Shown here: piece after piece, positions 5,501 through 45,087 of the stretch
Layout of the letters: each line of letters begins with the position of its first letter
Numbering within the stretch: the stretch's first letter is position 1
From: Squalus acanthias
Lineage: Eukaryota
Reading direction: 5' to 3'
DNA: 64,000 nt
NCBI GenBank assembly: GCA_030390025.1
Contig: CM059432.1
Location: forward strand, 22,012,001-22,076,000
The notes under the pieces: generated by a model
What the model was told of the DNA's origin: nothing
Databases searched by the model: none
What the model saw: only the letters and a program-made list of their open reading frames with translations
Made by a program: the position numbers and the translations under genes

Positions 5501-5984
5501 ATTAGTTGACTTTGTTAAGTTCCATTGGATGGATTGATGGATAAAGTTGGATTGGAATGTTTCTTTTGTGGTGGTTTTTATGTCAGCCTAGTGGCCAAGT
5601 GGACGCTGTGATTGTCAGTAACAGAGGACAGGTATAGAATCATAGAATCATAGAATGGTTACAACACAGAAGGAGGCCATTCGGCCCGTCGATCCCGTGC
5701 CGGCTCTCTGCAAGAGCACTTCAGCTAGTCCCACTCCCCTGCCCTTTCCCCATAGCCCTGCAATTTTTTTTCCTTTAGGTACTTATCCAATTCTCTTTTG
5801 AAAGCCATGGTTGAATCTGCCTCCACCACCCTTTCAGGCAGTGCATTCCAGATCCAAACCACTCGCTGAGTAAAATGTTTTTCCTCATGTTGCGTTTGGC
5901 TCTTCTGCCAATCACCTTAAATCTGTGTCCTCTGGTTCTCGACCCTTCCTCCAGTGGGAACAGTTTCTCTCTATCTACTCTGTC

Positions 5985-8037
5985 ATGAAAACCCAAAAGG
6001 AAAAGTGATCCAATCATGGCTAACAAAAGAAATTAAAGCTAGTATTAAGTCAAAGGAGGAAGCTTATAAAGTTGCCAGAAAAAGCGGTCAGCCTGAGGAT
6101 TGGGATCTTTTTAGAAATCAGCAAAGGGGGACCAAGAAATTGATAAAGAAAGGGAAAATGGAATATGAGCACCAACTAGCGAAAAATATAAAAACGGATT
6201 GTAAAAGCTTCTATAGGTATGTGAAAAGGAAAAGACTGGCGAAGGTAAATGTAGGTCCTTTACAGTCAGAGATGGGAGAATTTATAATGGGGAATGAGGA
6301 AATGGCTGAGAAATTAAATAAAAACTTTGTTTCTGTCTTCACGGAGGAAGACACAAAAAACCTCCCAGAAATACGAGAAAACCAAGGGTGTGACGAGAAT
6401 GAGGAACTTAAAGAAATTACTATTAGTAAAAAAACAGTACTAGCAAAATTAATGACACTAAAAGTCGACAAATCCCAAGGACCAGATGACCTACATCCTA
6501 GGGTTTTGAAAGAGGTGGCCATTGGAATAGTGGACGCATTGGTTGTCATCTTCCAAAATTCTATAGATTCTGGAACGGTTCCTGCAGATTGGAGGATAGC
6601 AAATGTAACCACACTATTTAAGAAAGGAGGGAGAGAGAAAACGGGGAACTACAGACCTGTTAGCCTCACATCAGTAGTTGGGAAAATGCTGGAATCTATT
6701 ATAAAGGATGCAATAACTGGGCACTTAGAAACTAATAGTAAGATTGGGCAGAGTCAACATGGATTTATGAAAGGGAAATCCTGTTTGACAAACCTATTGG
6801 AGTTCTTTGAGGATGTAACTAGTGGAGTAGACAAAGGGGAACCAGTAGATGTGGTGTATCTGGATTTTCAGAAGGCCTTCGATAAGGTCCCACACAAGAG
6901 GTTGGTGAACAAAATTAGGGCACATGGAATTGGGGGTAATATACTAGCATGGATTGAGAATTGGTTAACAGACAGAAAACAAAGAGTAGGGATAAACGGG
7001 TCTTTTTCAGGATGGCAGGCTGTGACTAGTGGGGTACCGCAAGGATCGGTGCTTAGGCACCAGCTAGTCACAATCTATATCAATGATTTGGATGAGGGGA
7101 CTAAATGTAACATTTCCAAATTTGCTGATGATACAAAGCTAGGTGGCAGTGTCAGTTGTGAAGAGGATGTGATTAGGCTTCAAGGGGATCTCGACAGGCT
7201 CAGTGAGTGGGAGAGAACATGGCAGATGGAATATAATGTGGATAAATGTGAAGTTATCCACTTTGGTAGAAAAAACAGAACGGCAGAGTATTTCCTAAAT
7301 GGTGAAAGATTGGGCAATGCAGATGCTCAAAGGGACCTGGGTGTCCTTGTACATGAGTCACCGAAAGTGAATGTGCAGGTGCAGCAAGCCATTAGGAAGG
7401 CAAATGGTATGCTGGCCTTCATTACAATAGGATTTGAGTACAGGAGTAAAGAAGTCTTACTCTAATTATATAGGGCCTTAGTGAGACCACACCTGGATTA
7501 CTGTGTACAATTTTGGTCTCCTTACCTAAGGAAGGATATACTTGCCATAGAGGGAGTGCAACGAAGGTTCACGAGATTGATTCCTGGGATGGCGGGACTG
7601 TCGTATGAGAAGAGATTGCGTAAACTAGGCCTGTATTCTCTTGAATTCAGCAGAATGAGAGGGGATCTCATTGAAGCATACAAAATTATTACAGGGCTTG
7701 ATAGGGTGGATGCTGGGAGAATGTTTCCCTTAGCTGGGGAGTCTAGAACGAGGGGTCACAGCCTCAGGATAAAGGGTAGGCCATTCAGAACTGAGATGAG
7801 AAGAAATTTCTTCACACAGAGGGTGGTGAATCTTTGGAATTCTCTGCCCCAGAGGGCTGTGGAGGCTCAGTCATTGGGTATATTCAAAACAGAAGTCGAT
7901 AGATTTCTGACTAGTAAGGGCATCAAGGGATATGGCCGGTGAATGGAGTTGAGGCAGAAGATCAGCCATGATCTCATTGAATGGCTCGAAGGGCCGAATG
8001 GCCCACTCCTGTTCCTATTTCTTATGTTCTTATGTTC
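5985..8037 (+). mobile_element. 5'-truncated CR1 LINE, young; ORF2 RT broken by one in-frame stop (7463-7465)
   Basis: ORFs 5954-7465 and 7481-7942 are in one frame, with YRPVSLTS, YLDFQKAFDKV, GVPQGSVL and KFADDTKL; 3' tail (ttcttatg)n. Confidence 0.93.
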
Positions 8038-9255
8038 TAGACGCCTCATGATTTTAAACACCTCTATCAAATCTCCTCTTAATCTTCTCTGCTCTAAGGA
8101 GAACAACCCCAGCTTCTCCAGTCTATCCATGTAATTGAAGTCCCTCATCCCTGGAACCATTCTTGTAAATCTTTTCTACACCCTCTCTAAGGTCTTCACA
8201 TCCTTCCAGTTGAGGCCGAACCAATATTTTATAAATGTTCATCATAACTTCCTTGCTTTTTTACTCTCTGCCTCTATTCATGAAGCCCAGGATCACGTAT
8301 GCTTTTTTAACCGCTTTCTCAACCTGCCCTGCCACCTTCAATGATTTGTTCACATATACCCCTAGGTCACTCTGTTCATGCACCCCCTTTAGAATTGCAC
8401 CCTTTTGTTTATATTGCCTCTCCTTGTTCTTCCTACCAAAATGTATCACTTTGCACTTTTCTGCATTAAATTTCATCTGCCACGTGTCTGCCCATTCCAC
8501 CAGGCTATCTATGTCCTCTTGAAGTCTATCACTATTCTCCTCATTGTTCACTATACAGGAAACTCTTTATTAACCGGCACCGACGGGACCGGCGTGGTGC
8601 CGGTTAATCAAAAAGTCCGGATAACGGAGAGTTATATCTCCCAACGTACGAGAGCCCCGTACACATTGACATGCGCCTGCATGTAGAATTCGCAATATAT
8701 CGCGATTTGATTAATGAGGAGAAAACACAAAGTTTCGTTCAAACAGCTTTTATTTCAGCAGAATGCTGGCAGGTTTAAATTGGACACAAGCAGCCTGTAA
8801 AATGGCCGCCGCACCTCGTGACAGAACATTCTAGACTTTTCAACAGGCAGACAAGATGGCGTTCCAATAAACATTTGTGCAAGATCGATTACGATTCAGC
8901 ACAGTGAAGATAATACACGAGACATTATGGGTTTGCAGTATAAACATAGATACTGGAATCGGTCTCCCAGGTACAAAGGAAAGCCATTGTACCGAGTAAT
9001 CAAGGGCCCATCCAAAGGACATTAATATGTAAATCCCAACGACTCTACGATGAGAGAGCCGTTAGCAGGTAGTTATACAGGACACTTGGAAGCCCCAAAC
9101 CCCTCCAGGGAGAACACCGACCGATTTAACAATGGGAGAAATATTAACAGGCACTCAGACATTTATGAGTAGCCCCGAAACCCATTAAGAACGGAGATCA
9201 CCCATACAAGACATTTGGGCGCCAAACCCTAAACAAAAGAATGGACATTATAGTT

Positions 9256-9311
9256 GGGCGGGAAACGGAAGATTTTTGCACTATAATTGCAGGCTCCAAA
9301 CCGTCCATTCT
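9256..9311 (+). promoter_or_regulatory. Candidate LTR promoter: GC box, ETS-like CGGAAG, TATAA, Inr
   Basis: GGGCGGG 9256, CGGAAG 9266, TATAA 9282, CCATTCT 9305 followed by a pyrimidine run; an alternative TATATAA lies at 10019. Confidence 0.5.
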
Positions 9312-9519
9312 CTCTCTTGCTCTGGCATTCGCTCGCTTGCTCCTGTGTGTTATCCGGTCGATTCGTAACCTCGTGGCTGCTCCTGTGTACTCGTAGTTGG
9401 GCTTCTGCTTGCCCGTTGCCCTTTCTGAAAAGACTGTTGAACTTTCTGATCCGTTCGGATCTACCTCGTGTCGCGTAACGAAGACCTATGTTGGTAACTG
9501 GCAGCGGAACCGAAGGCCC

Positions 9520-9552
9520 GAGATGAGATGAGATGAGATGAGATGAGATGAG
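9520..9552 (+). repeat. (GAGAT)n microsatellite within the LTR (same length in the 3' LTR)
   Basis: gagatgagatgagatg... read directly in both LTRs. Confidence 0.9.
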
Positions 9553-10355
9553 AAGAGAGGAAGACCATATCCATCGCCACGGTCAGTAAATCCCGACCGC
9601 GCCTGTAGGTCGATCAGCCAAGTTTTCCTCGCCAGGAAGATTTCTATTTTGAACTTTTAACAAAACATATTGCATCGACGATAATGGGACTGTGTCTAAG
9701 GAGACTGGTACGTGAAACCAACCAACAGAGATCTTCATCACAGCAGACGGTCCAGCCTACTAGCCGGAGCAGCAGAAGCAAGTAAACAAGTGGGACCAGG
9801 AGATCTCCTGACCGACACGTGGGTGCTGCGGTGAAAAACATCCGATCAGCTATTCGGAATTTCTCCGAGTTATCACGAGTGGTGAGCATGAGTCTCGAGA
9901 TCCTACGAAGCTAGTTTAGGATAGATATTGATAGGGGAGGGTTTAAGGATTAAGGATATTTGTAATGTGTGCCCCTATTTACTTTGTGCCGTTCGTTCCT
10001 CGTTTCCCTAAGATCGACTATATAACTGTTTGTAAGATTGTACTGTCATTAATCTGTGCTTATGACATGTATTTCATAATTTTAAGTATCATGCAATAAA
10101 GATTTTCCATTTCGTACCATTCAAACCAAGTCTACATGAGTTTTATCTCCATTACTGCTCTCGCATCTAAGTCCAGTGTCTAGAACCGTAAGGGAGAGTG
10201 ATTCGAACCACTCACAGGTGTGTCTAGTGTTCCCAGACTGGCTGGAGACCAGAACAGGCAACCAGGCCTAGACCCGCACTGACATACAGGCTGCACAGAG
10301 CCGCGTGAACCTCACAGGCTGCGAGACACGCAGGGTCAGGAATCCCTTACAGAAA

Positions 10356-12167
10356 ATGGCGACCGCGGCAGGACACTGGCAGCGAGAGGGTAGTGTGTTA
10401 GATTTTGGAATGACTGTACGAAATGTTATGCAGGAAAAGATAGCGGATTATGTGTTTGGAAAGGTTAATCTAACCAAGAAATGGATAAGTGAATTGTTAG
10501 CGGATAAGAGCCCACTAGAGGCAGCTGAAAGGTGGACAGATAGTAAAGAACATAGAAAGACACTTGAGAAAGCAGTCTGGCTTATGTGCTACAAAAGGCA
10601 GGTTCAGATTTCAAACCAGACCATTACAGCGCTAGTAGCTCGAATCAGTCATTTAGAGGGAGAAATGGAGGAGAAGGTTTCTGGAGGGGAGGTGCTCATT
10701 AAGAATTTAAATGAGTTACACCAGGAAAGCCAGGAAGTCTCCAGTCACCTTAAAACAAGGATAGATTATCTCGAGTGCCAGGTCACTGAGGCAAAATTGA
10801 ATGAGAGCAGGTTAAAGGAAAGATGTAACCGCCAAGCTGCCCAGATAAGAACTCAAGAAGAGAGCTTAATGGGGGTTAGGTCGGCATATAAGTTGGCCCT
10901 TGAGGATAAGTTTCAGGGAGCCGACCATAGCGCCTGCCAAAGGGAGATAGAGAACCTCAAAAAGGCCGTGAACAATGCGAACGGCATGGTGTGCCTTATC
11001 AATCCGTCGGCGCACCAGCCGCTAGTAAATGAGAGATTTAGAAAATCCCCACCAAGTAAAGCAGAAGAAGTAGTAGCCACTGCGCCCTCCGCGCCACCCA
11101 GCTATTCAGAAACCTGGGTTAGGGAGGAAGCAATGGAAGAAACAAAAGAGCCCATTGAAAAGGAAGTAGAAAAGGGATCGCTGTATCCAGTAACGGGTAT
11201 TAAAAGGGGCCCAAGCAGAAACGGTGGGGAAGAACCGGGAGATCTCCTCGGACAGCTGGTGTTGCCTCACAGTTCACATCAGCTGAGAGCTATGATAAAT
11301 CACGTACGGAAGCTGACCGAGATAGACGACCCTTCCGTACATTTCAGAGAAGTTGAGCAAGCCGCAGCCATTAACGGCTGCGATGATGGGGAGACAGCAA
11401 AAATGCTGCTGTTCTCATTAGACAGCTCGGTCCTTCAGTGTCTCTCAGGCGAGAGCAAGAGGGGAAACAAGAGTTATGAGGAATTAAAGAATGAGGTCCT
11501 AGAAGTGTTGGGGGCGAACGACGGAGGTCCGTTTGCTAGAGTGGGACAGACAGTGCAGATGGAGGGAGAACCCCCGAAGGTTTTTGCCGACAGGCTGTGG
11601 CCAGTATATGAGCGCAGCTGTCTAGGTGCGCCCGAGCGCGAAGATGTGGAAGGCGCCGCTTTAACTCATTGGCTTAGGTGCATAATAGCCAACAGTTTAC
11701 CAGCCGTTAGAGAGCAGGCAAAAGCATGGTTTGATCCCAATGACCTCAACCTTACGGAAGAGTCGGTCTTGAATCGACTCACGTTAGGTTATCGTAATAT
11801 AAGGGGTATGACGACACGTCCCTTTAAGGGAAGAGTACATGAGGTACGACCCGCAGCCCCGTATCAAAGAGAGTGGCATCAGGAGGGTAATCGCGCCCCA
11901 CAGGCAAGTAATGCTTGTTACGGGTGTGGGAAGACAGGGCACTGGCGCAAGCATTGCAGGAACCCTTGGAAGGATTCCAAGGATAAAAATCCCGCGGTCC
12001 GAGCCCAGGCGCCTGTCCCGGCTAAGGAAGCCAAGGCACCCACCCCTCCCGACGACCTCGAAGCAGTGTTAGGAGCCATGCGCAAGCTAGTCTTGAATGC
12101 GCGTGGACAGGTGGCGGTCGCAACCGGCCCCGTAGGTGCCGCAGGACCGTCTAATAGTGCCCCATGA
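10356..12167 (+). CDS. gag: Gag polyprotein (603 aa from ATG 10356): coiled coil, PSAPPSY late domain, CA-like region, one CCHC knuckle
   Basis: First ATG after the LTR in strong context (AAAATGG); CYGCGKTGHWRKHC at 11916-11957; lies between PBS and pol. Confidence 0.92.
   Translation: MATAAGHWQREGSVLDFGMTVRNVMQEKIADYVFGKVNLTKKWISELLADKSPLEAAERWTDSKEHRKTLEKAVWLMCYKRQVQISNQTITALVARISHLEGEMEEKVSGGEVLIKNLNELHQESQEVSSHLKTRIDYLECQVTEAKLNESRLKERCNRQAAQIRTQEESLMGVRSAYKLALEDKFQGADHSACQREIENLKKAVNNANGMVCLINPSAHQPLVNERFRKSPPSKAEEVVATAPSAPPSYSETWVREEAMEETKEPIEKEVEKGSLYPVTGIKRGPSRNGGEEPGDLLGQLVLPHSSHQLRAMINHVRKLTEIDDPSVHFREVEQAAAINGCDDGETAKMLLFSLDSSVLQCLSGESKRGNKSYEELKNEVLEVLGANDGGPFARVGQTVQMEGEPPKVFADRLWPVYERSCLGAPEREDVEGAALTHWLRCIIANSLPAVREQAKAWFDPNDLNLTEESVLNRLTLGYRNIRGMTTRPFKGRVHEVRPAAPYQREWHQEGNRAPQASNACYGCGKTGHWRKHCRNPWKDSKDKNPAVRAQAPVPAKEAKAPTPPDDLEAVLGAMRKLVLNARGQVAVATGPVGAAGPSNSAP
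10357..10374 (+). promoter_or_regulatory. Primer binding site, tRNA-Arg(TCG)
   Basis: TGGCGACCGCGGCAGGAC is the reverse complement of GTCCTGCCGCGGTCG-CCA, the 3' end of vertebrate tRNA-Arg(TCG) as I recall it; 5 nt after the LTR. Confidence 0.85.
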
Positions 12168-15100
12168 CTAGAACCAGCACAGCCCGTCTACCTGTGTCCG
12201 CTTAGCTATGATGCGTGGAGGCGACCTGTGGTGGAGATGGAGGTAGAGAAACAGAAGGGCAGTTATTTGTTGGACACGGGAGCTTCTTGCACCATAATCC
12301 ATACAGATGACCCTTTTGACTCGCCGCTATCTACCAAGGTCCCATTCACGTTGGCAGGGTTCACAGGAAAAGAACAGGCTGGCACGTTTTCCCTTCCGCT
12401 ATCCATTCGTTTAGGAACACTTCGCCTTAAGTGGAAGTGTATACTGATGGCATGGCAAAAGGGGGGTGGAAGAGGTATTCTCGGGTCCGATCTCCTAGCG
12501 GGACACGGGATCCTCGTGGACCTCAGAAATCACTGTCTCTGGGGGGCTAAAGGTGAAAAAGGCGAGGTAATAGTGATTCCGGGGGAGGAAGAAACAGGGG
12601 TCCTGTGTACCGTACAGCCATCCGGAGGCTACGACCTCAGGCTTATGGTCGCAGATGTCCCAACGGACATGCAAACGTACGTGTCAGATAATATGCACGC
12701 GTTTGCAACCCACAAGCACGATTGTGGGAGAGTGGTCGGGTTTGAGGTCAGCGTAGATGGGGACCCCATGACCCGACCCCAAAAGCAGTATAACTTCCCC
12801 AAAGAAGCAGAACCCGATATGGAGACAGCAATGTCTTCCTTGGTGCAGCAGGGCGTGTTAAGGCCGATAGCCACACACGTGAACTCCCCATTATGGCCGG
12901 TTAGGAAGCCGGATAATTCGTGGAGAGCCACGGTGGACTACAGAGTCCTTAACAGTAACATTTCCGCCTGCGCGCCCACAGTAGCAGCAGTTGCTGACCT
13001 AATAGGGAGCATCCCAGCGTCCGCGACCACGTTCACGGTGCTGGATATCTCGAACGGTTTTTGGTCCATCCCGCTGCGGCGAGAGGACCAGTACAAGTTT
13101 GCCTTTACGTTCAAAGGGCAACAGTACACGTGGAACTGTCTGCCACAGGGTTTCCACAATAGCCCCAGTATTTTTCATCAGTGTATGGCAGGAAGTTTAA
13201 AGGAGTTTAGTCAGCCCAATCAGATAGTACAGTATGTGGATGATTTGCTCCTATTTACGGACTCAAGGGAGGAGCACGGACCACTACTGGACGAGTTATT
13301 GGAACTGTTAGCGAGAAAGGGTTTTAAAATAAATCCTAAGAAAGCACGTATCGGTCAGCGGGAAGTAAAATTCCTGGGACTGACCATACGCGCTGGGGAA
13401 AGAGCCATAGACAAAGCAAGGAGGGAGTCGGTGCAAGAATTACCGATTCCCAACAACGTAAGGGGTGTGAGGTCCTTCTTGGGACTGACCGGTTACTGCA
13501 GGGATTTTATCGAAGATTATGCGGCCACAGCGGCGCCGCTCCTCCGACTCCTCCATAAGGGGGTGGAGTGGCTTTGGGACGAGGGCTGCCAAGCAGCCTT
13601 CGAGAAGTTAAAAAGGGATCTGCAGACCGCGCCAGCCTTAGGGGCCATAGATGGGGGGAAGGAGTTTTTCCTGGAGGTAGCTGCCAGCGGAGACAGCTTA
13701 AGCGCCGTGCTGCTCCAAGAGCGTCACGGCAAGCTGAGGCCGGTTGTCTATTCATCCAGGGTATTAACGGATGTGGAGAGAAGTTTCTCCAATTGCGAAA
13801 GGCACCTTTTAGCCACGCATTGGGCTGTGAAAAGATCAGCGATCTTCACAGGGCTCTCTCCCATCACTCTCCTCACACATCACACACCAACTAAGATGCT
13901 TCTGGATGGGAGGATTAAAGACGGGACCGTAAGCAGCGCACGCATTGCGCGTTGGACCCTTCTTCTCTCCCAGTTGGATCTTAGAGTAAAGGGTCTTTGC
14001 GAGCCCAGGCTTGCGGCCAATTTGGTATACCCCGGTACAGCCCACCGGTGTTCGGTGGAAGGGGTGTGGGACGTCAACATAGGTTTACGGGCCGGGATAC
14101 ATCCCACTGGGCGCGAGATTTATGTTGATGGGTCTAGCACAGTGTCTGCTGGCGAGCGACTCACAGGGTGTGGAGTTTATGACCCTGCGGCAGACCTTGC
14201 CCTGGCGATCAAGCTCCCTAGCACTATGAGCGCGCAGCAAGCTGAGCTGTCTGCCGTGGTGTACGTTGTGACCCACCCAGACATTTTCCCAACCCCATAC
14301 ACGATTTGCTCGGACAGTATGTTCACCTGCAATTCGTGTACGGAATACCTGGCCATTTGGTCCCGCCGCGGATACACCTCCGCGGACGGGCGACCTTTAA
14401 CGGTGAAGCCCTTGCTGGAAAAGATCTTAGCAGCAGCAGTAGGGGAGGAAGGAGAGATTTTCATCCATAAGGTGAAAGCTCACTCCTCCACAGAGCCCCG
14501 TGGGGAGGGCAACCGGCAGGCGGATGCGCTAGCCAGGGAGGGTGCCCGCGACGGCACTTTCTGGAACCCCTACAGGACCGGACCCATAGCAGCGGTCCGA
14601 GGCGGGGACGGGAATACCGGGAACACCAGGGTAGCATTGCCCCTAGACCTCAAGACCGTCCAAGCCCAGGATCCCGCCCTAAAAGCAGTCCTAAAAACGA
14701 TTGCTGAGGGGAGGCAGGTAGAAGGTCCGTACAGTACGGCAACCCTCTCAGTTAAGGAAGGCATGCTGTTCCGCGAGGAGCAGTGGGTTGTGCCGCAGCA
14801 GCACAGGAGGGAATTCCTCCAGTTGGCTCACGAGGGACCAGGGGCAGGGCACCCCGGGCCCGAGGTTACCTGGCAACGGGTAGAGCAGGCGGGATGGTGG
14901 CCAGGGCTCAGGGAACAAGTCCGCGAGTTCTGTGCAAACTGTCTTGTGTGCGCCGCAAACAACCCAGACCCCCAGAAAAGGAAGGTGCCCATGGGACACG
15001 TAAGAAGGGTAGAGGGACCATGGCAGTCGATACAGATCGACTATATAGGACCCCTGCCCACCACCCAGGGAGGTTATAAGTACTGCCTCGTCCTGGTGGA

Positions 15101-16652
15101 TGTGTTTTCCAAGTGGGTGGAAGCCTTCCCTTGTCGAACAGCTACAGCACTGGGTACAGCAAAAATCTTGGTCCGGGAAGTGTTCTCGCGGTGGGGACTC
15201 CCCCGTTTTGTGGAGTCAGACCAAGGGAGTCATTTCACCGGCCAGGTGATGCAGAACACCCTCATGCTTTTGGGCATTGAAGGGAAGTGGCACGTAGCAC
15301 ACAATCCCCAGTCATCCGGGATTGTAGAACGTATGAACCGGACCCTGAAGGAGAAATTGAGGAAAGAGACTAGGAACTCGCCCCAAAAATGGGCGGAAGT
15401 TCTGCCTTTAGTCCTCATGGGGGTCCGGGCCAGTCAGTCAAAAAGTACGGGGTACTCCCCGCACGAGGTAATGACTGGGAGGCTCATGCGAACCCCCACC
15501 CATGTGCTAGCGCCGGTGCTCACTGAGGGTCAGCTCCAAGAGATAAGCAGGGACAAGTTCGCCCAGACTCTCTTGGAGCGCCTGAAGCAAGTTTATGAGC
15601 AGGCGGCTGGGAACATGGGAAGGCAGCATCAGGGCAATCGCTTGTTGCTGGAACCCCGCAAAACGCGGGAGTGGGAAGTAGGAGACCAGGTCATGGTCAG
15701 AAACTACGCCAGAGTGGGGAGTCTGGAACCACTATATATGGGACCCTACAACATTGTAGACAAGGCGAGTCCCATGGTTTACGCCGTAAAAGTACCTCGG
15801 CGCACTAAGTGGTTCCACATAAACCAATGCAGACTGTACCAGCCGGGTGCGCAGGGGAAAACTACAGGGGTAAATCCCGCCAATGGGAAAGCACAGCCCC
15901 AGGTAGGACCACAAGGCACACAGGCAGGCATAGCAGCTTGCATCAGGGGAAGGGACATCCCGGACGATCATGCAGCGTTTTTCTGGAGTTGGGGGTTAGA
16001 TGAGGAAGAACCCAGGGTACCCTGGTCAGATGAGGATAGTGCAGATGAGCATAGTGATGATGACGGGTGGTTCCTGAGGAACGGTCTGGGGGGAATGGGG
16101 CCTATAGGTAGAGATCCACACAGGGTGGACACACAAGCTGCAGGTCCCGAGGACAGAAGGGAGGAGCTAGAGGAGGCAGGGCCAGCCGCTATAGGAGCAC
16201 AGAGAGTACCGATGTGGCTCCCAGAGATGTGGCCGCCCGCTTTGAACGTCCAGTCCTCAGGGGAGGCAGAGATCACGAGTGAAGGGCCGCTTGCTGGGCC
16301 GAGCAGGGCGGAGCCACGAACTGCCAGCCCCGAGGTTAGGGAGGCGGAGTCAGCGGAGGCGGAGCCGGCGACTGTGATGGAACCCCAGGTCATCCCGTTG
16401 GAGGTCTCGGAACCCGGTCCGTCCGTCACGGAACCCCCGCCCATAGCAACTCCCCGTAGGTCAAGTAGAGAACCCCAGCCCAGGAGGATGTGGTCATGTC
16501 CCCAGACTGCCCCAAGGCGTAGACTTCAGGTTAAGATAACCCGGGTACAGACCGGCCACATCGCAGCAGTAACAGGCTGCGGCAGATCAGAGGGAAGGGT
16601 CAGTGCCCTCCCACCGTCGGGAAGAGCTCGCAGCAGCCTTCTCAGAATTTAA
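12168..16652 (+). CDS. pol: Pol (protease, RT, degenerate RNase H tether, RNase H, integrase, C-terminal extension), in frame with gag
   Basis: LLDTGAS (12273), LPQGFHNSP, YVDD (13233), YVDGS/AELSA/SDS/KAH/NRQAD RNase H, HHCC + D,D,E integrase (IQIDYIG, ESDQGSHF, VERMNR), GPY motif; frame is open from the codon after the gag stop. Confidence 0.96.
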   Translation, partial: LEPAQPVYLCPLSYDAWRRPVVEMEVEKQKGSYLLDTGASCTIIHTDDPFDSPLSTKVPFTLAGFTGKEQAGTFSLPLSIRLGTLRLKWKCILMAWQKGGGRGILGSDLLAGHGILVDLRNHCLWGAKGEKGEVIVIPGEEETGVLCTVQPSGGYDLRLMVADVPTDMQTYVSDNMHAFATHKHDCGRVVGFEVSVDGDPMTRPQKQYNFPKEAEPDMETAMSSLVQQGVLRPIATHVNSPLWPVRKPDNSWRATVDYRVLNSNISACAPTVAAVADLIGSIPASATTFTVLDISNGFWSIPLRREDQYKFAFTFKGQQYTWNCLPQGFHNSPSIFHQCMAGSLKEFSQPNQIVQYVDDLLLFTDSREEHGPLLDELLELLARKGFKINPKKARIGQREVKFLGLTIRAGERAIDKARRESVQELPIPNNVRGVRSFLGLTGYCRDFIEDYAATAAPLLRLLHKGVEWLWDEGCQAAFEKLKRDLQTAPALGAIDGGKEFFLEVAASGDSLSAVLLQERHGKLRPVVYSSRVLTDVERSFSNCERHLLATHWAVKRSAIFTGLSPITLLTHHTPTKMLLDGRIKDGTVSSARIARWTLLLSQLDLRVKGLCEPRLAANLVYPGTAHRCSVEGVWDVNIGLRAGIHPTGREIYVDGSSTVSAGERLTGCGVYDPAADLALAIKLPSTMSAQQAELSAVVYVVTHPDIFPTPYTICSDSMFTCNSCTEYLAIWSRRGYTSADGRPLTVKPLLEKILAAAVGEEGEIFIHKVKAHSSTEPRGEGNRQADALAREGARDGTFWNPYRTGPIAAVRGGDGNTGNTRVALPLDLKTVQAQDPALKAVLKTIAEGRQVEGPYSTATLSVKEGMLFREEQWVVPQQHRREFLQLAHEGPGAGHPGPEVTWQRVEQAGWWPGLREQVREFCANCLVCAANNPDPQKRKVPMGHVRRVEGPWQSIQIDYIGPLPTTQGGYKYCLVLVDVFSKWVEAFPCRTATALGTAKILVREVFSRWGLPRFVESDQGSHFTGQVMQNTLMLLGIEGKWHVAHNPQSSGIVERMNRTLKEKLRKETRNSPQKWAEVLPLVLMGVRASQSKSTGYSPHEVMTGRLMRTPTHVLAPVLTEGQLQEISRDKFAQTLLERLKQVYEQAAGNMGRQHQGNRLLLEPRKTREWEVGDQVMVRNYARVGSLEPLYMGPYNIVDKASPMVYAVKVPRRTKWFHINQCRLYQPGAQGKTTGVNPANGKAQPQVGPQGTQAGIAACIRGRDIPDDHAAFFWSWGLDEEEPRVPWSDEDSADEHSDDDGWFLRNGLGGMGPIGRDPHRVDTQAAGPEDRREELEEAGPAAIGAQRVPMWLPEMWPPALNVQSSGEAEITSEGPLAGPSRAEPRTASPEVREAESAEAEPATVMEPQVIPLEVSEPGPSVTEPPPIATPRRSSREPQPRRMWSCPQTAPRRRLQVKITRVQTGHIAAVTGCGRSEGRVSALPPSGRARSSLLRI

Positions 16653-16903
16653 AGGGGCCGCCCTGAGAACGGGCGGCACTGTAAAGTTATAGTTCTAAGT
16701 TTTAAGTTTATAGTTCAAGGTTAAGGTTGTAATTTTAATAAGGCTAAGTTTGTAGTGTTTTTAACAGAAAACGATAAATGATGGGAGTTTTAAGGTTAGG
16801 TTTAGAGGAAGTTTATTCAGCAAACGTTGAAGTTTACGTGAGGCGAGGTCAGGGGACCCGCTCACCCTTCACAAAAGCCAGAGACTCTTGCGAGGCTGGC
16901 TAC

Positions 16904-16923
16904 CTCATTCTATCTGATCACAG
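16904..16923 (+). promoter_or_regulatory. Candidate env splice acceptor
   Basis: ctcattctatctgatcacag|g, 13 nt upstream of the signal-peptide ATG at 16937; alternative acceptor tttttaacag ~16767. Confidence 0.45.
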
Positions 16924-16936
16924 GAACCAAGGAAGG

Positions 16937-19288
16937 ATGGAACGAATTCTAGTATTGCTCGTGGCAATCGGATGTGGATTGGCCTATCGAGGCCACACCA
17001 AGGATGTCGTGGTGTTTGGATGTTCCGGGGACACGGCCCCCATCGCGGTGGATGGGACCGGAAGACGGAAGGCAGAGGGGACCAGCACCTATTTCCACAA
17101 GGGAAGGTGGCCAGGATGGCTGGGAACGAACTCAACGGAGTATTCTAGCACATCGGGGTTTGCCTACCAAGAGACTTCTTTACTGTGCCCCAAAGTAAGG
17201 ATCATCGCACCCAGGATCAGCGTCACCGTCGGCAAACGGATTTGTTTGACTTGTAGTGGGAAGGTCCCATTGAGCCGATGGTGGTGGCTGCGAAAGCTGA
17301 GCAAAACTATGAGAAACTCTTCGGTCGAGTGGGAACGACTGGGTAATAATACCCATCGGACAATTACGGGGACAGACGGACAAGTGAAAGTCTGTTGGGA
17401 CAAATGGTGGGAACCGGATGAGGGAATTTATGTATGTATGTGGGGGTCAAAGTACGTTTGCCCCAAAGGCATCTCCATATTTTTTATTAATCAATGGCAG
17501 GATAACGGACAGGGGATGAGGTGGGATGCGAGCACCAGGGGGTGCGGAGCCCCATTCTCCCCGATCCCAGTAAATGCCACTGAACTCATTACGCGCCCAC
17601 GCAAAGCCCCGCCCACGATTCCGGTGGTTCTAGCTGAGGAAGAAGGGTGCCCTAAAACTAGTAAGGGACCCGGGAATGGTTTGGTACTGGTCCCCACAGA
17701 CCAGATACTCTTTCAGGGGGTACATTACGCGGTGGCCTCGGTGATTTTAAATCTCACTGAGGTACGGTTACCAGAGTGGTGCCCCAAAAAGACGGAACAG
17801 TTGTATCAGGTCCTGTTGACCAAGATGTTCAGACAATTTTACGAGTTTGATTTTGCAGAAATTGATAAGACAAGTTTGTATACCGCACCGCAGGAAGTTT
17901 TGGATCAAGTAGGGAGGCAAAGAAGGGGTTTGGTGAACGATGCGTTCACTGCTTTTAACACAGGGACATCTGTGGTCAACGCTCTCGACAGTGTGGAGCT
18001 GCAGACCCAGATTAATGGTTTAAAAACACAGTTAAAAGACATTCTAACAGATGAGAATAAAGTGGTAGGGTCAGGTCTACACGAGGACCAAGCCATGACT
18101 CTCCATTTAAAGGAAATTATAGCAGAGCTGGAGAAACATGCGCGTACGGTAAATGCCCTGATCAGGGAAGATCGGAATGCATCCGATCAAGCTGCGCAGA
18201 ACGAGGTGTGCGTGCTTTACGGGGCGTGGTTACTGGGCGAGGGCCGCAGTAATTTGGAGGATTTAAAACAAGGTTTGGTTCCGTCCTGGATAAGTAACAA
18301 ACACCTACGGGCGCTCCACCCTTTTCAGAACGCATTAAGTCCGTGCCAGCTCAGGCTAGCTTCAGAAGCTTACCCAGTCCCCGTGGACTGCGGACGATCA
18401 AACCATACTATTATGGGAATAGTATTACGCATGCCGGTTTTGGGCGACACAGCAAAGCCCGCCCCGGTATATCGGGTAGAGAACATTGGTGTCATTCAGG
18501 GGGGAGCCCACATTCGTTACGCAGCGGTTCCACCTTACGTCATCCGCTGGGAGCAAACGATGACAGGTACAGATCTCTCTGGTTGTCGTGGCAGGGGAGC
18601 ACACATAATACTGTGCCCCCAGCACTTGAATGCCTTTTTAACACCACAGTGCGGGTTCAGAACGGCTGGCGCCAAGTCCATGAATTGCACCATGGAGGCA
18701 ATGGCACAAGATCATGTGCCTCCGCAGGTAGCATACATCGGGGGTGGAACATATTGTGTTACCACTGCAGCGCAACACTACCAGCATGGAAACCGTAGCC
18801 GGTGTCCGGTGAGTGACAGCAGTTTCTGTTTTAAACCCAGGGCTGAAGTTCAAGTAGCACAACAGCGAATTATCCCAATCCCTGAACCATCCACTGTTCA
18901 TCTCACAGTAAAAGAGAATTTCACCGACTTGCAGCGATTTGTCGCGCATTTTGGATACCTCATTCCCCCTCTCCCTGAACACTTAACCAAACTTCTGAAA
19001 GCCGTCGCGGTATCACAGAAACATTTTTATACATTAGAGCAGAAAACTGTCGAAATAGGAACAGACATTTTGGACATAGTAGTTCCACCGTGGTGGAATC
19101 TGTTCACTAATATTGAAGTGCCTTCATGGATCAGAATAGCCTCCCACATTTTAGTCGTATGTCAAGTGTTTATTGTAGTGTACCTATTGGTCATACATTG
19201 TAAAAGAGACAAACGCCTCACCAAGCATGAAAACACGGGAGAGTGGCGAGAACGTTACGTGCGCGTGCACGATGAGAGCACCGTGTAA
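16937..19288 (+). CDS. env: Envelope glycoprotein (783 aa from MERILVLL): signal peptide, Ig-like domain, furin site, F-protein-like fusion subunit, TM anchor
   Basis: Signal peptide MERILVLLVAIGCGLA; RQRR/GLVNDAF at 17915-17926; heptad repeats; Cys-rich ectodomain; TM IASHILVVCQVFIVVYLLVIHC; many N-x-S/T sequons. Confidence 0.9.
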   Translation: MERILVLLVAIGCGLAYRGHTKDVVVFGCSGDTAPIAVDGTGRRKAEGTSTYFHKGRWPGWLGTNSTEYSSTSGFAYQETSLLCPKVRIIAPRISVTVGKRICLTCSGKVPLSRWWWLRKLSKTMRNSSVEWERLGNNTHRTITGTDGQVKVCWDKWWEPDEGIYVCMWGSKYVCPKGISIFFINQWQDNGQGMRWDASTRGCGAPFSPIPVNATELITRPRKAPPTIPVVLAEEEGCPKTSKGPGNGLVLVPTDQILFQGVHYAVASVILNLTEVRLPEWCPKKTEQLYQVLLTKMFRQFYEFDFAEIDKTSLYTAPQEVLDQVGRQRRGLVNDAFTAFNTGTSVVNALDSVELQTQINGLKTQLKDILTDENKVVGSGLHEDQAMTLHLKEIIAELEKHARTVNALIREDRNASDQAAQNEVCVLYGAWLLGEGRSNLEDLKQGLVPSWISNKHLRALHPFQNALSPCQLRLASEAYPVPVDCGRSNHTIMGIVLRMPVLGDTAKPAPVYRVENIGVIQGGAHIRYAAVPPYVIRWEQTMTGTDLSGCRGRGAHIILCPQHLNAFLTPQCGFRTAGAKSMNCTMEAMAQDHVPPQVAYIGGGTYCVTTAAQHYQHGNRSRCPVSDSSFCFKPRAEVQVAQQRIIPIPEPSTVHLTVKENFTDLQRFVAHFGYLIPPLPEHLTKLLKAVAVSQKHFYTLEQKTVEIGTDILDIVVPPWWNLFTNIEVPSWIRIASHILVVCQVFIVVYLLVIHCKRDKRLTKHENTGEWRERYVRVHDESTV

Positions 19289-19717
19289 TCGGAAAATGGC
19301 GTCACTCCCGCTCGCCGCGTGCGCCGCGGAAGTTTGTACTCATATAAGATTTTCAGAGATTGTAAATACGTTGGGAACTCGACATGTTTCAGAGTTGGGG
19401 TTTTGATTATTTTAGTGATGGTGTTGATTGTTTGGTTTTGGGTTTTGTTTTTTCCTTTCCCTGAATAAAAGACAAATATACAGGTGATACGAGGGGTATC
19501 GGCCTGGTTACACCGGGAAGGAAAACGAGTGGTGTAAGTTTAAGGGCAAATAATGCCTACGGTGATATAAAATGTGATTTTCTTGGGAAATAAGGACGAC
19601 ACAGAGACCCTAGCTAAGTTAAAAATTATGGGATTAATTTACTGGATTCGGAGAGAAATCGAGATAATATTGCTCACCACTATGATTCTTGATACGATAA
19701 GCGGAGTTATTCGCATC

Positions 19718-19729
19718 AACAGGAGGGAC
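19718..19729 (+). promoter_or_regulatory. Polypurine tract (short)
   Basis: aacaggagggac immediately before the 3' LTR TG. Confidence 0.7.
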
Positions 19730-21399
19730 TGTAGAATTCGCAATATATCGCGATTTGATTAATGAGGAGAAAACACAAAGTTTCGTTCAAACAGCTTTTA
19801 TTTCAGCAGAATGCTGGCAGGTTTAAATTGGACACAAGCAGCCTGTAAAATGGCCGCCGCACCTCGTGACAGAACATTCTAGACTTTTCAACAGGCAGAC
19901 AAGATGGCGTTCCAATAAACATTTGTGCAAGATCGATTACGATTCAGCACAGTGAAGATAATACACGAGACATTATGGGTTTGCAGTATAAACATAGATA
20001 CTGGAATCGGTCTCCCAGGTACAAAGGAAAGCCATTGTACCGAGTAATCAAGGGCCCATCCAAAGGACATTAATATGTAAATCCCAACGACTCTACGATG
20101 AGAGAGCCGTTAGCAGGTAGTTATACAGGACACTTGGAAGCCCCAAACCCCTCCAGGGAGAACACCGACCGATTTAACAATGGGAGAAATATTAACAGGC
20201 ACTCAGACATTTATGAGTAGCCCCGAAACCCATTAAGAACGGAGATCACCCATACAAGACATTTGGGCGCCAAACCCTAAACAAAAGAATGGACATTATA
20301 GTTGGGCGGGAAACGGAAGATTTTTGCACTATAATTGCAGGCTCCAAACCGTCCATTCTCTCTCTTGCTCTGGCATTCGCTCGCTTGCTCCTGTGTGTTA
20401 TCCGGTCGATTCGTAACCTCGTGGCTGCTCCTGTGTACTCGTAGTTGGGCTTCTGCTTGCCCGTTGCCCTTTCTGAAAAGACTGTTGAACTTTCTGATCC
20501 GTTCGGATCTACCTCGTGTCGCGTAACGAAGACCTATGTTGGTAACTGGCAGTGGAACCGAAGGCCCGAGATGAGATGAGATGAGATGAGATGAGATGAG
20601 AAGAGAGGAAGACCATATCCATCGCCACGGTCAGTAAATCCCGACCGCGCCTGTAGGTCGATCAGCCAAGTTTTCCTCGCCAGGAAGATTTCTATTTTGA
20701 ACTTTTAACAAAACATATTGCATCGACGATAACGGGACTGTGTCTAAGGAGACTGGTACGTGAAACCAACCAACAGAGATCTTCATCACAGCAGACGGTC
20801 CAGCCTACTAGCCGGAGCAGCAGAAGCAAGTAAACAAGTGGGACCAGGAGATCTCCTGACCGACACGTGGGTGCTGCGGTGAAAAACATCCGATCAGCTA
20901 TTCGGAATTTCTCCGAGTTATCACGAGTGGTGAGCATGAGTCTCGAGATCCTACGAAGCTAGTTTAGGATAGATATTGATAGGGGAGGGTTTAAGGATTA
21001 AGGATATTTGTAATGTGTGCCCCTATTTACTTTGTGCCGTTCGTTCCTCGTTTCCCTAAGATCGACTATATAACTGTTTGTAAGATTGTACTGTCATTAA
21101 TCTGTGCTTATGACATGTATTTCATAATTTTAAGTATCATGCAATAAAGATTTTCCATTTCGTACCATTCAAACCAAGTCTACATGAGTTTTATCTCCAT
21201 TACTGCTCTCGCATCTAAGTCCAGTGTCTAGAACCGTAAGGGAGAGTGATTCGAACCACTCACAGGTGTGTCTAGTGTTCCCAGACTGGCTGGAGACCAG
21301 AACAGGCAACTAGGCCTAGACCCGCACTGACATACAGGCTGCACAGAGCCGCGTGAACCTCACAGGCTGCGAGACACGCAGGGTCAGGAATCCCTTACA
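19730..21399 (+). repeat. 3' LTR (1670 bp)
   Basis: Direct repeat of 8682-10351, followed by TSD TGCA. Confidence 0.97.
21143..21148 (+). terminator. Poly(A) signal in the 3' LTR (10095-10100 in the 5' LTR)
   Basis: AATAAA after an AT-rich tract, ~250 nt before the LTR end. Confidence 0.65.
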
Positions 21400-23479
21400 T
21401 GCATTCGGAGCTCCGTCTCCCCGGGGACCGCCAGCTGACCATCTGTCGTGTCCGCTGCCTACCCGGGCTGCACATTCCCCTCCCAATCTACACGCTCCGA
21501 TACAAGGCAAATGCCTCGGGGTTTTTTTTAAAGTTAATTCTAAATGAGAGATGAAGGAAAACCCTGGTTACCTACTCAAGAATTTTGCCGGTTAAGAGAG
21601 ATTTCCGGATATTTGGGTGCCGGTTAATAAAGAGTTTCCTGTATTTCCAAGTTTTGTGTCATCTGCAAATTTTGAAATTGTGCCCTGTACATCCAAGTCT
21701 AAGTCATTAATATATATCAAGAAAAGCAGTGGTCCTAGTATTGACTCCTGAGGAACACCACTGTATACTTTCCTCCAGTCCGAAAAACAACCGTTCACCC
21801 CTACTCTCTGTTTCCTGTCACTTAGCCAATTTCATATCCATGTCACTATCCCTTTTATTCCATGGGCTTCAACTTAGCTGGCAAGCCTATTATGTGGCAC
21901 TTTATCAAACGCCTTTTGGAAGTCCATGTATACCCCGTCAACCACATTGCCCTCATCAACCCTCTCTGTTACCTCATCAAAAAACTCAATCAATTTAGTT
22001 AAACATGATTTGCCTTTAGCAAATCCATGCTGGCTTTCCTTAATTAATCAATGCTTGTCCAAGTGACTGTTACTTTTGTCCCGGATTATTGTTTCTAAAA
22101 GCTTCCCCACTACCGAGGTTAAATTGACTGGCCTGTAGTTGTTGGGTTTTTTGAACAATGGCGTAACGTTTGCAAGTCTCCAGTCCTCTGGCACTATCCC
22201 CATATCTAAGGAGGGTTGGAAGATTATGGCCAGTACCTTCGCAATTTCCACTTTTACTTCCCTCAGCATCCTAGGATGCATCCCATCTGGTCCTGGTGAC
22301 TTATCTACTTTAAGTACAGCCAGCCTTTCTAGTACCTCCTCTATCAATTTATATCCCATCCAGTATCTCAACTACCTCTTCTTTCACTATGACTTTGGCA
22401 GCATCTTCTTCCTTGGTAAAGACAGTTGCAACGTATTCATTTAGTACCTCAGCCATACCCTCTGCCTCCATGTGTAGGTCTCCATTTTGGTCCCTAATCG
22501 GCCCCACCCCTCCTCTTACTACCCGTTTACTATTTATATGCCTATAGAAGACTTTTGGATTCCCTTTTTTCTTAGCAGACAATCTATTCTCATATTCTCT
22601 CTTTGCCCCTCTTATTTCATTTTTGACTTCCCCTCTGAACTTTCTGTATTCAGCCTTATTCTCAACCTGACATCTGTCATACGCTCCCTTTTTCTGCTTC
22701 ATCTTGCTCTCTATCTCTTTCGTCATCCAGGGAGCTCTGAATTTGGTTGCCCTCATGGGAATGTACCTCGACTGTACCAGAACCATCTCCTTTTAAAGGG
22801 AGCCCATTGTCCGATTAAAGTTTTGCTTGCCAATCTTGGATTCCAATTTACCCGGGCCAGATCCATTCTCAACCCACTGAAATTGGCTTTCCGCCAATTA
22901 AGTATTTTTACTCTAGATTGCTCCCTGTCCTTTTCCATAGCTAGTTTAAACCTTATGAGACTGTGATCACTGTTCCCTAAATGTTCCCCTACTGACACTT
23001 GCTCTGCTTTACCCACCTCATTCCCCAGACCCAGTTCCAGCAATGCCTTCTTCCTCATTGGGTCAGAAACTTACTGATCAAGAAAATCCTCCTGAACACA
23101 CTTCAAAAATTCTTCAGTGTGTTTCTCTCTCCACAGTTGCTGCCTGACCTGCTGAGTATTTCCAGCATTTTCTGTTTCTATTTCTGAAATTCTTCCCCCT
23201 CTCTGCCCTTTACACTATTACTATCCCAGTCTATATTAGGATAGTTGAAGTCCCCCATTATCACTACTCTATAGTTCCTGCACCTCTCTGTAATTTCCCT
23301 GCAAATTTGCTCCTCTATATCCTTTCCACTAGTTGGCGGCCTATAGAACACACCTAGTAGTGTAATGGCACCTCTATTGTTTCTCAACTCTAACCAAATA
23401 GATTCTCCAGGACCTAGCCTCCAGGTAAGGTGTGGGACTATTATTGATAGGGGAATTGGGGTTGTGTTCACTCGTACCA

Positions 23480-43846: not shown

Positions 43847-45087
43847 ATGGGAACCATTAATTTCCTTTCATCATAGAGCCTCAGATTCAGATGAGGAGCA
43901 TCCATGGCAGCAGCAGAACCAGGCAGCTCAGCAGCAACAGCAGCAGGAGCCCCAACCTCCTGCTCAGCCACCTGATGCTGCACAGGGCAGAAGGCGCCAG
44001 CGCATCGAGGCACCTCACCGCAGGAGATACCCCCCACAGAGGGTTTACAGACAGAGGATGAGCAACCTCAACAAGAGTAAGCAGCAGTGCCAAAGGAGGC
44101 TGAGACTTTCAGGAGAGGTTGTCCGAGAGATCTGCGGCCTGCTGCAGCAAGACCTGGTGCCCAGATGAATGGGTGGACACCCCTTACCAGTGGCCGTCAA
44201 AGTCACCACCGCACTCAACTTCTTTGCCTTAGGCTCCTTCAAGGGATTATCAGCAGACATCAGCGGCATCTCCCAGTCGGCCGCCCACAGTTGCATCACG
44301 CAAGTTACCGATGCCCTTTTCGCAAAGGCGCACAATTACATCCAGTTCACAAGGGATCAAGCAAGTATAACTGCCCGTTTGGTTGGCTTTGCAAATATGG
44401 CAGGCATGCCAATGGTGCAGGGCGTAATAGACTGCACACATGTGGCCCTTAGGGCACTCCATCACAACCCAGCTATCTTTGTCAACCGAAAGGGCTTCCA
44501 CTCCCTCAACGTACAGCTGGTGTGTAACCACAAGGAGTTCTTGCATGTTTGCGTCAAGTTCTGTGGTAGTTGCCATGACTCTTTCATCCTGCGGCACTCT
44601 AGTGTTCCTCCATTCTTCAATCCGCCAAACCAACTTAACGGATGGCTCCTTGGTGACAAAGGCTACCCCCTGAACAAGCGGCTAATGACGCCGATCAGGA
44701 GGCCAGCTAACGAGGCTGAAGAGCGCTACAACGCCAGCTACACTTCGACCAGGTCCATCATCGAGCAAACCATTGGGTTGTTGAAGATGCGCTTCCGTTG
44801 CCTTGACCGATCAGGTGGAGCCCTGCTGTATACATCATACAGGGTCTCCAGAATGGTCTGCTGTGCACTGCACAACATCGCACAGCGTCGTGGCTTGCAG
44901 CTTCCTGATGAGCAAATGGCTCAGTTCCAGCCCTCCTCAGATGAGGATGAGGAGGAGGAGCAGGAGGAGGAGGAGGAGCAGGAGGAGGTCAGAGCGCCTG
45001 GTGTATCGACCAGCGGCAGCGGCAGCACGCAAGCACATGGCTGCCCGGGATGCAAGGGATGAACTTATCCTGGCCAGATTTGCATAG
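43847..45087 (+). pseudogene. Harbinger transposase (HARBI1-like); DDE core open in 44169-45062, ends disrupted
   Basis: [57 protein letters not shown]. Confidence 0.9.

Follow-up and report, generated by a model that had tools for sequence, protein, structure and literature searches.

A young, high-copy retrovirus family of Squalus acanthias with a canonical-type Pol and an envelope predicted to share the paramyxovirus/pneumovirus F fold

A 64,000-nucleotide stretch of Squalus acanthias DNA (NCBI GenBank assembly GCA_030390025.1, contig CM059432.1, positions 22,012,001 to 22,076,000 of the forward strand; hereafter the window) holds a provirus with open gag, pol and env genes, which raises the question of what kind of retrovirus it is and how it has spread. 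A sequence-only reading of the window had described it as an intact, very recent, lokiretrovirus-like provirus of an elasmobranch. The analysis reported here bore out both its intactness and its youth and placed it elsewhere. With a probability of roughly 0.75, the element belongs to a young, high-copy retrovirus family of an elasmobranch that combines a canonical retroviral Pol with an envelope of the paramyxovirus/pneumovirus fusion protein (F) type and that has spread in an env-dependent manner.

The provirus is 12,718 bp long, with all of its features on the + strand. Self-comparison of the window at an offset of 11048 revealed two long terminal repeats (LTRs) of 1670 bp each (8682-10351 and 19730-21399), which start with TG, end with CA and differ at exactly 3 sites (9505, 9685 and 10263) with no gaps. 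The 4-bp word TGCA stands on both outer sides (8678-8681 and 21400-21403), and since 5/5 uninterrupted paralogous copies of the flanking repeat hold a single TGCA at the junction, the target-site duplication is real. A motif scan placed a TATA-like word at 10019 and an AATAAA at 10095 in the 5' LTR. The 18-nt primer-binding site (10357-10374) begins five bases past the end of the 5' LTR and is complementary to the 3' end of host tRNA-Arg(TCG). A pattern made of the primer-site complement and the T-arm had 398 genomic matches, versus 0 for the reversed control, and ARAGORN called tRNA-Arg(tcg) at 3/3 loci checked, so that both the site and its primer are real. A 12-letter polypurine tract (19718-19729) lies directly 5' of the 3' LTR; the same tract precedes the LTR at 13 of 30 LTR loci extracted from the genome, namely the 3' LTRs and one tandem junction.

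Between the LTRs, the gag, pol and env frames are all open. The gag gene (10356-12167, counted from the first in-frame ATG, with the next ATG at 10410) encodes an N-terminal coiled-coil stretch, a PSAP motif (11085-11096), a major-homology-like motif (11556-11609) and one CCHC knuckle (11916-11957), and the Pfam search of Gag gave no family above threshold. A single TGA (12165-12167, context TGA CTA G) parts gag from pol (12168-16652), which stays in the gag frame. Pfam recognised in Pol a protease (DTG motif, 12267-12287), a reverse transcriptase (RT, 12900-13388), a tether (RT_RNaseH_2/RT_RNaseH, residues 450-582; 13575-13973), a second RNase H (RNase_H, residues 630-773; 14115-14546) and the zinc (14790-14966), core (15018-15308) and SH3-like (15711-15839) domains of an integrase. 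The catalytic motifs of protease, RT, RNase H and integrase (HHCC; D,D,E) are present. Past the SH3-like domain, the pol frame runs on for an acidic and proline-rich tail of about 270 residues (15840-16652), for which no family match was found. The env gene (16778-19288) encodes 836 amino acids. The near-identical LTRs with their TGCA duplication (self-comparison and flank paralogs), the primer-binding site (genome pattern and ARAGORN), the polypurine tract, the open genes with catalytic motifs (reading frames, Pfam and a motif check) and the tether followed by a second RNase H (Pfam), all of which the sequence-only reading had picked out, were thus confirmed.

To which retroviruses does this Pol belong? 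The nearest Pol, at 87% identity, is an assembled protein; then come proteins of frogs (Pyxicephalus, Rhinophrynus, Aquarana, Xenopus) and the coelacanth at 43-45%, a protein (P0013) at 34% (E 2e-89) and class I-type endogenous retroviruses (ERVs) at 30-32%. P0013 is the Pol of snakehead retrovirus (SnRV), because its RT string is identical to the SnRV row in the supplement of Wang and Han (PMC7947760). The RT words of the window match the SnRV row of that published alignment and not its Loki rows, which have different words at conserved RT blocks. The typical words of the frog, coelacanth and window group are absent from the whole supplement, so the group lies outside the data sets of Wang and Han. 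Many of the integrase and Pol relatives carry the source name 'NYNRIN-like'.

Lokiretrovirus-type Pols were brought into the phylogenetic trees by an integrase-region search. A killifish protein (P0209) was recognised as a lokiretrovirus by the 16- and 25-residue RT strings that it shares with a printed Loki row, and the remaining lokiretrovirus-type rows by the same type of motif. RT and tether were then used together, with Ty3/Gypsy rows as the root. In a quick tree of 64 rows and 419 columns (LG+C20 with posterior mean site frequencies, PMSF; branch supports from the Shimodaira-Hasegawa-like approximate likelihood ratio test, SH-aLRT), the rows with two RNase H domains formed one clade (100), within which 4 lokiretrovirus-type rows (97) stood apart from the other 42, the window included (99). 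The window and its 87% relative joined frog, coelacanth and Xenopus rows in a group of 13 (80), which adjoined a clade of SnRV, two fish rows and class I viruses (94). After removal of P0211 (short) and P0203 (without RT) at an earlier stage, a further 20 rows (a long-branch foamy-linked piece, near-duplicates, short rows and some outgroup rows) were dropped for a reduced tree of 44 rows and 414 columns with SH-aLRT and ultrafast bootstrap (UFBoot) supports. It split 3 lokiretrovirus-type rows and the outgroup from the window and all the rest at 100/100, and kept SnRV with the two fish rows and the class I viruses at 96.8/92. An approximately unbiased (AU) test, with the constrained tree taken from a fast search, rejected a clade of the window group and lokiretroviruses (log-likelihood difference 49.7, p 1.7e-5). 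The integrase tree, computed from a set without a labelled CGIN1 sequence, gave the same outline with weak basal support (67.5/58). Of the two phylogenies that the sequence-only reading had proposed as checks, the RT tree thus spoke against lokiretroviruses, while the integrase tree was weak at its base. Judged by RT and tether sequences, the element stands with canonical retroviruses. Its position among them is a poorly resolved basal grade that it shares with ERVs of frogs and the coelacanth and that adjoins SnRV and class I viruses (broadly, 'SnRV-like'). By the same sequences it is not a lokiretrovirus.

As a separate observation, two fish ERV Pols of the comparison (P0022 and P0025) carry two H-x-T/S-type words upstream of the RT. 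Such words are typical of 2H phosphoesterases and may mark a captured domain.

The trees bear directly on the alternative that the provirus is a lokiretrovirus, or belongs to an exclusive sister lineage of lokiretroviruses, newly met in cartilaginous fish. The LTR-gag-pol-env layout, the tether and second RNase H, the H2C2 zinc domain of the integrase and the F fold of Env described below would all suit it; the N-terminal coiled-coil of Gag recalls the coiled-coil proteins of some lokiretroviruses described in PMC7947760, and the integrase scores 224-257 bits against lokiretrovirus-type integrases compared with 127 bits against that of SnRV. However, both RT and tether trees (SH-aLRT 99; 100/100) and the AU test separate the two, the RT words are of the SnRV type and unlike the published Loki rows, and BLASTP found no similarity between Gag and a lokiretrovirus-type Gag-Pol. 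Moreover, lokiretroviruses are recorded in 0/6 chondrichthyan genomes in Fig. S1 of PMC7947760, and the orders screened there are those that now yield relatives of the window env, in agreement with a placement outside lokiretroviruses. A lokiretroviral identity in this strict sense is scarcely credible. What stands of the lokiretrovirus-like character claimed for the provirus is the tether with a second RNase H and the predicted F fold of Env (Foldseek; Z about 12); membership and sister relation do not.

The envelope was searched in a full scan of 1.84 billion representatives, which gave 50 relatives. The nearest are in elasmobranchs (skate, 75% identity; sawshark, 59-74%; catshark, 67%), others at 28-38% in sevengill shark, horn shark, smooth-hound and bamboo shark, and the most distant, at 19-21%, in frogs (Pelodytes, Mantella, Xenopus); the Env of SnRV is not among the 50. 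The elasmobranch host proposed by the sequence-only reading is supported by these nearest relatives (59-75%), but the HE1/SacSINE1-like repeats on which the proposal was based were not confirmed, as Rfam gave neither a SINE nor any other family above threshold for the window. A search for mitochondrial COX1 yielded nuclear fragments only. In frogs, a protein that belongs to this Pol group continues into the N-terminus of the window Env family (51% identity, E 3e-29), so that Pol and Env travel together in frogs too. An alignment of 35 of the 50 relatives has a conserved basic cleavage site followed by a glycine- and asparagine-rich segment and a long heptad region, then a conserved cysteine set, a second heptad region and a membrane anchor. 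In the window copy, a hydrophobic signal-like stretch (16946-16984), a furin-type RQRR (17915-17926), a putative fusion peptide directly behind it (17927-17986), the second heptad region (18983-19075), the membrane anchor (19127-19201) and a tail of 28 residues were located.

An AlphaFold model of Env was built on this alignment, and its core (about 17648-18901) was compared with solved structures. The best Foldseek match had an E value of 2.4e-12, 252 matches reached E <= 0.001, and the best 49 of the listed matches were all F proteins of paramyxoviruses and pneumoviruses. A second look with VIA-align gave Z 12.9 to 11.3 for F proteins over model residues 298-705. A structure search independent of Foldseek returned nine F chains at Z 10.2-12.2 and further F chains at 7.0 to 6.2, together with foamy virus Env at 8.6 (prefusion form, root-mean-square deviation 5.6 over 293 residues) and 7.6; the scores of unrelated chains did not exceed Z 5.0. 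The look-alikes of Env found with a protein language model were clusters of insect Gypsy/baculovirus F, paramyxovirus F0 and coronavirus S2. According to the model, the core of Env is a paramyxovirus/pneumovirus F fold. In the genome, the Pfam F family gave no match in a strict first look in which the controls were silent too, a result that carries no weight.

A further alternative is a foamy-like (spuma-related) ERV, of the kind reported before from cartilaginous fish. In foamy viruses, Pol is translated from a separate mRNA, whereas gag and pol of the window share one frame across a stop codon. The best solved relative of the integrase is that of prototype foamy virus (E 1.4e-33), and foamy Env, which has an F-like core according to PMC11468914, matches the Env model at the Z of 8.6 given above; F proteins, however, match it better (Z 10.2-12.9). 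The Pfam foamy Env model (PF03408) does not match the window Env, although the same model finds 11 remnants elsewhere in the genome, and RT-RNase H scores 239 bits against the RT of murine leukaemia virus versus 215 bits against foamy protease-RT. A pol piece of this genome that is linked to foamy Env did not group with the window, on a branch so long that its position is unsure. We regard a foamy-like ERV as very unlikely here. The foamy-type remnants themselves (loci L031-L038, for example G000:C20:14482918-14494400) are broken and lie beside degraded pol, and represent an older second retroviral lineage of this genome.

The provirus of the window is not a singular find: LTR, env and pol searches of the assembly (3.71 Gb, 3882 contigs) showed it to be one of dozens. 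In the LTR search, 46 matches were scored of 3914 first-look candidates, many of them in pairs that stand about 11.1 kb or about 7.7 kb apart. Every scored match of pol (37/37) and of env (54/54) is full-length, stop-free and 99-100% identical to the window proteins; the LTR, env and pol counts are floors and not copy numbers. The 30 extracted LTR loci formed 10 LTR pairs with 0, 0, 1, 1, 1, 2, 2, 2, 3 and 4 mismatches, the window copy with its 3 being among the older of the copies compared. Perfect 4-bp duplications, each different, flank 9 of the 10 pairs, the tenth being a tandem arrangement, and two solo LTRs with duplications of their own were seen among the 30 loci. At least two LTR subfamilies exist, of 1670-1676 bp and 1715-1727 bp and about 96% alike, with near-identical pairs in both.

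Assembly collapse, which the sequence-only reading had named as a possible cause of the LTR identity, was ruled out: the two LTRs of the window differ at 3 sites, and of 9 further pairs, all at different loci, 8 are flanked by a 4-bp duplication of their own. At 3/1670, the slow rate of 2.2e-10 per site per year adopted for elephant shark by Han (PMC4422223) would make the window copy about 4 million years old, and a mammal-like rate about 0.4 million years; neither rate may be that of this host.

The pairs at the shorter spacing include a pol-deleted form of 7.6-7.8 kb, of which two copies were compared (L048, G000:C3:73363100-73372500; L049, G000:C10:92664900-92674550), and the genome holds at least 5 LTR pairs with this spacing. 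Both copies have the same breakpoints and lack the equivalent of window positions 12200-15819, that is, protease through integrase, which is replaced by about 240 bases coding for a coiled-coil repeat in frame with the pol-frame tail. In 2/2 copies, gag, the pol-frame tail and env are all open, and in one of them the two LTRs are identical. By their structure, these copies must have been reverse transcribed and integrated by enzymes supplied in trans. The tail (15840-16652) is kept in frame in these derivatives, and given this retention it may have a role of its own.

Further arrangements were observed in the family and around its primer. At L027/L028 (G000:C2:118708479-118724345), one LTR has a polypurine tract before it and a primer site, with one extra base, after it; these seem to be two tandem proviruses with a shared LTR. 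Hundreds of tRNA-Arg(TCG) copies match the primer site of the provirus. At G000:C26:38.99-42.22 Mb (L040-L044), a unit of about 1.6 kb is repeated in long tandem arrays, and in the two array loci scanned it contains a gene for tRNA-Arg(TCG) and one for tRNA-Ser(GCT).

The family is also present nearly unchanged in several labelled organisms. Sequencing runs X6, X12, X13 and X16-X19, from five further organism codes, hold at least half of the sampled 31-letter words of flank and provirus, making six organism codes in all with such runs, and the contigs from a second organism are about 99% identical to the provirus (one example has 8 differences in 905 bases). Across the provirus, 3 of 4 runs gave contigs that join 8677 to 21400. 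The flank is a repeat with at least 40 genome matches, and because 5/5 paralogs of this repeat give the same junction, these contigs do not show an empty allele.

How the family has spread was approached by comparing env in four copies: the window copy, one full-length copy of the other LTR subfamily and the two pol-deleted copies. Of 22 variable sites, 19 are synonymous and 3 nonsynonymous, corresponding to a crude ratio of nonsynonymous to synonymous rates (dN/dS) of about 0.05; with synonymous sites making up 0.23 of env, the binomial probability of 19/22 is 5.7e-10. Since changes after insertion would be mostly nonsynonymous, most of the env differences probably arose while Env was needed, that is, during infection cycles, and the synonymous excess in these sequences argues for env-dependent spread.

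The same data speak to the alternative that the family multiplied by retrotransposition within germ cells alone, with no infectious cycle, env being intact since the copies are too young to have decayed. Copies that are 99-100% identical make open frames by themselves weak proof, the pol-deleted copies were evidently copied in trans, as such a process would allow, and none of the sequencing runs listed for the stretch is recorded as RNA. But neutral decay would not give 19 synonymous against 3 nonsynonymous changes, every scored env match (54/54) is open, and in 2/2 pol-deleted copies gag and env are open when all of pol is gone. Multiplication without infection is thus unlikely, and we favour env-dependent spread.

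Taken together, the following course may be proposed for the family. As read from the sequence, reverse transcription is primed by host tRNA-Arg(TCG); Gag, with its PSAP late motif, capsid-like motif and single zinc knuckle, ends at the UGA, with protease, RT, tether, RNase H and integrase following in the same frame past it; and integration yields 4-bp duplications. Pol would be made by readthrough of the UGA, and Env presumably from a spliced mRNA. Env would act as a class I fusion protein in which the furin-type cut exposes the fusion peptide, followed by the F-fold core, while receptor binding probably falls to the additional N-terminal region of about 230 residues. Most likely, the family spread by reinfecting the germ line again and again, in an env-dependent manner, until very recent times, and it carried along the pol-deleted derivatives, which keep gag and env. 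By its sequences, the family was probably recently infectious.

Several points weigh against this account. Env matches no Pfam family, with no match to the F family (PF00523) even to E 10 and a weak hint of Ig_3 at E 0.51, and a profile of 35 Env relatives finds no solved structure by sequence. The AlphaFold model of Env has a mean predicted local distance difference test (pLDDT) score of 57.9 and is confident only at about residues 290-360 and 470-700; the N-terminal part is poorly modelled, with a pLDDT of 34 when folded alone. In the phylogeny, the frog, coelacanth and shark group is weakly supported (SH-aLRT 80 with 64 rows, 18.6/38 with 44 rows), and SnRV falls with the class I viruses and not with the window, so that 'SnRV-like' denotes a grade and no proven clade. 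The trees were built without labelled spuma, ERV-L and class II references, the one foamy-linked RT being a broken row on a long branch, and the 64-row result is that of a quick tree without bootstrap. The env test covers only four copies, of which the full-length one was picked from the other LTR subfamily. The RNA 3' of the gag UGA folds no better than its shuffles (z -1.1), and no structure is claimed for it; readthrough, env splicing and receptor binding are inferred.

The surroundings of the provirus are rich in mobile elements. The insertion point lies inside a member of a repeat family, and mobile-element frames at 5921-7465 (+), 27398-28612 (-), 44169-45062 (+) and 55608-56990 (+) comprise two RT frames of the long interspersed nuclear element (LINE) type, a Harbinger/PIF-type DDE transposase frame and a LINE endonuclease frame.

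These results bear on how retroviral envelopes arose and how often they were swapped. A fusion fold of the measles and respiratory syncytial virus type would here be joined to the Pol of an ordinary retrovirus. Lokiretroviruses and foamy viruses already show this fold, and with the present family three deep retroviral branches would share it. More tentatively, and with more doubt than belief, the F-type Env may be no peculiarity of lokiretroviruses and foamy viruses but a trait of an entire basal group of canonical retroviruses whose hosts are sharks, rays, frogs and probably the coelacanth. It would then be ancestral among retroviruses, with later replacement by the gamma-type Env, and the present family would be one that still circulates or endogenizes and that is near-identical in several hosts. 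The retroviral record of cartilaginous fish has so far consisted of old fossils, dated to 54-75 million years in elephant shark (PMC4422223), in contrast to the dozens of open gag-pol-env copies described here, some with identical LTR pairs and with a signature of selection on env. Public shark, ray and frog genomes list the relatives of this env as 'uncharacterized protein', and these could now be given names.

Among known systems, the family can be compared with the 'invading' ERVs (ERVi), which Wang and Han (2023; PMC10435555) characterised by identical LTRs, intact genes and insertional polymorphism. The present family likewise has open gag, pol and env and near-identical LTRs, with 2/10 pairs identical, and the window copy has intact genes and 3 LTR mismatches. 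The ERVi survey covers 2004 vertebrates, among them 13 cartilaginous fishes, and lists 37 host orders, no chondrichthyan order being among them. A literature search, with Repbase, Dfam and subscription journals outside its scope, found no account of this family, no F-type Env for SnRV-like viruses and no young intact ERV family of cartilaginous fish; a 2021 preprint on anamniote envelopes treats only the gamma-type Env in the part available.

By Pol, SnRV is the nearest named exogenous virus, sharing RT words with the window and standing, like it, on the canonical side of the RT tree beside class I. In both, gag and pol are parted by one in-frame stop (PMC13517186), an arrangement also found in gamma- and epsilonretroviruses. 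The stop context differs, being UAG GGC in SnRV (same source) and UGA CUA G in the window; SnRV itself groups with class I viruses (94; 96.8/92), and the window integrase scores 127 bits against SnRV compared with 260-330 bits against the frog and coelacanth group. The hosts of these nearest relatives (coelacanth, Xenopus and other frogs) are described hosts of SnRV-like ERVs. According to PMC4977317 and PMC4131045, the SnRV-like clade is the major ERV category of the coelacanth and is also reported from Xenopus, zebrafish and lamprey. In elephant shark it corresponds to CmiERV lineage I (Han 2015, PMC4422223), whose old copies contrast with the near-identical LTRs of the window family.

Lokiretroviruses, as described in PMC7947760, resemble the window in the LTR-gag-pol-env layout, the H2C2-type integrase and the tether with a second RNase H, a pair also present in canonical retroviruses, and their Env resembles the window Env in its furin-type site, fusion peptide and likeness to F proteins. 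The window nevertheless lies outside them by RT and tether phylogeny. The F likeness of its Env is structural and lacks the PF00523 sequence match, in contrast to lokiretroviruses, and it has about 230 extra N-terminal residues relative to lokiretrovirus Env. The Xenopus lokiretrovirus, according to the same source, makes one Spc7-Gag-Pol polyprotein, whereas gag and pol of the window are parted by a stop codon.

The closest structural likeness is to the F proteins of paramyxoviruses and pneumoviruses, with which the modelled Env shares the arrangement of fusion-core domains over about 290-350 residues (Z 10.2-12.9); the fusion core of foamy Env (PDB 8RM0/8RM1; PMC11468914) resembles it at Z 8.6. 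As in F proteins, the cleavage site of the window Env is immediately ahead of the predicted fusion peptide, which is followed by a long heptad region; another heptad region stands ahead of the membrane anchor. Their sequence identity is 7-15%, and the window protein is encoded by a retrovirus and has a long N-terminal extension absent from F. Paramyxoviruses carry a separate attachment protein, whereas in the window Env the attachment function is presumably built in.

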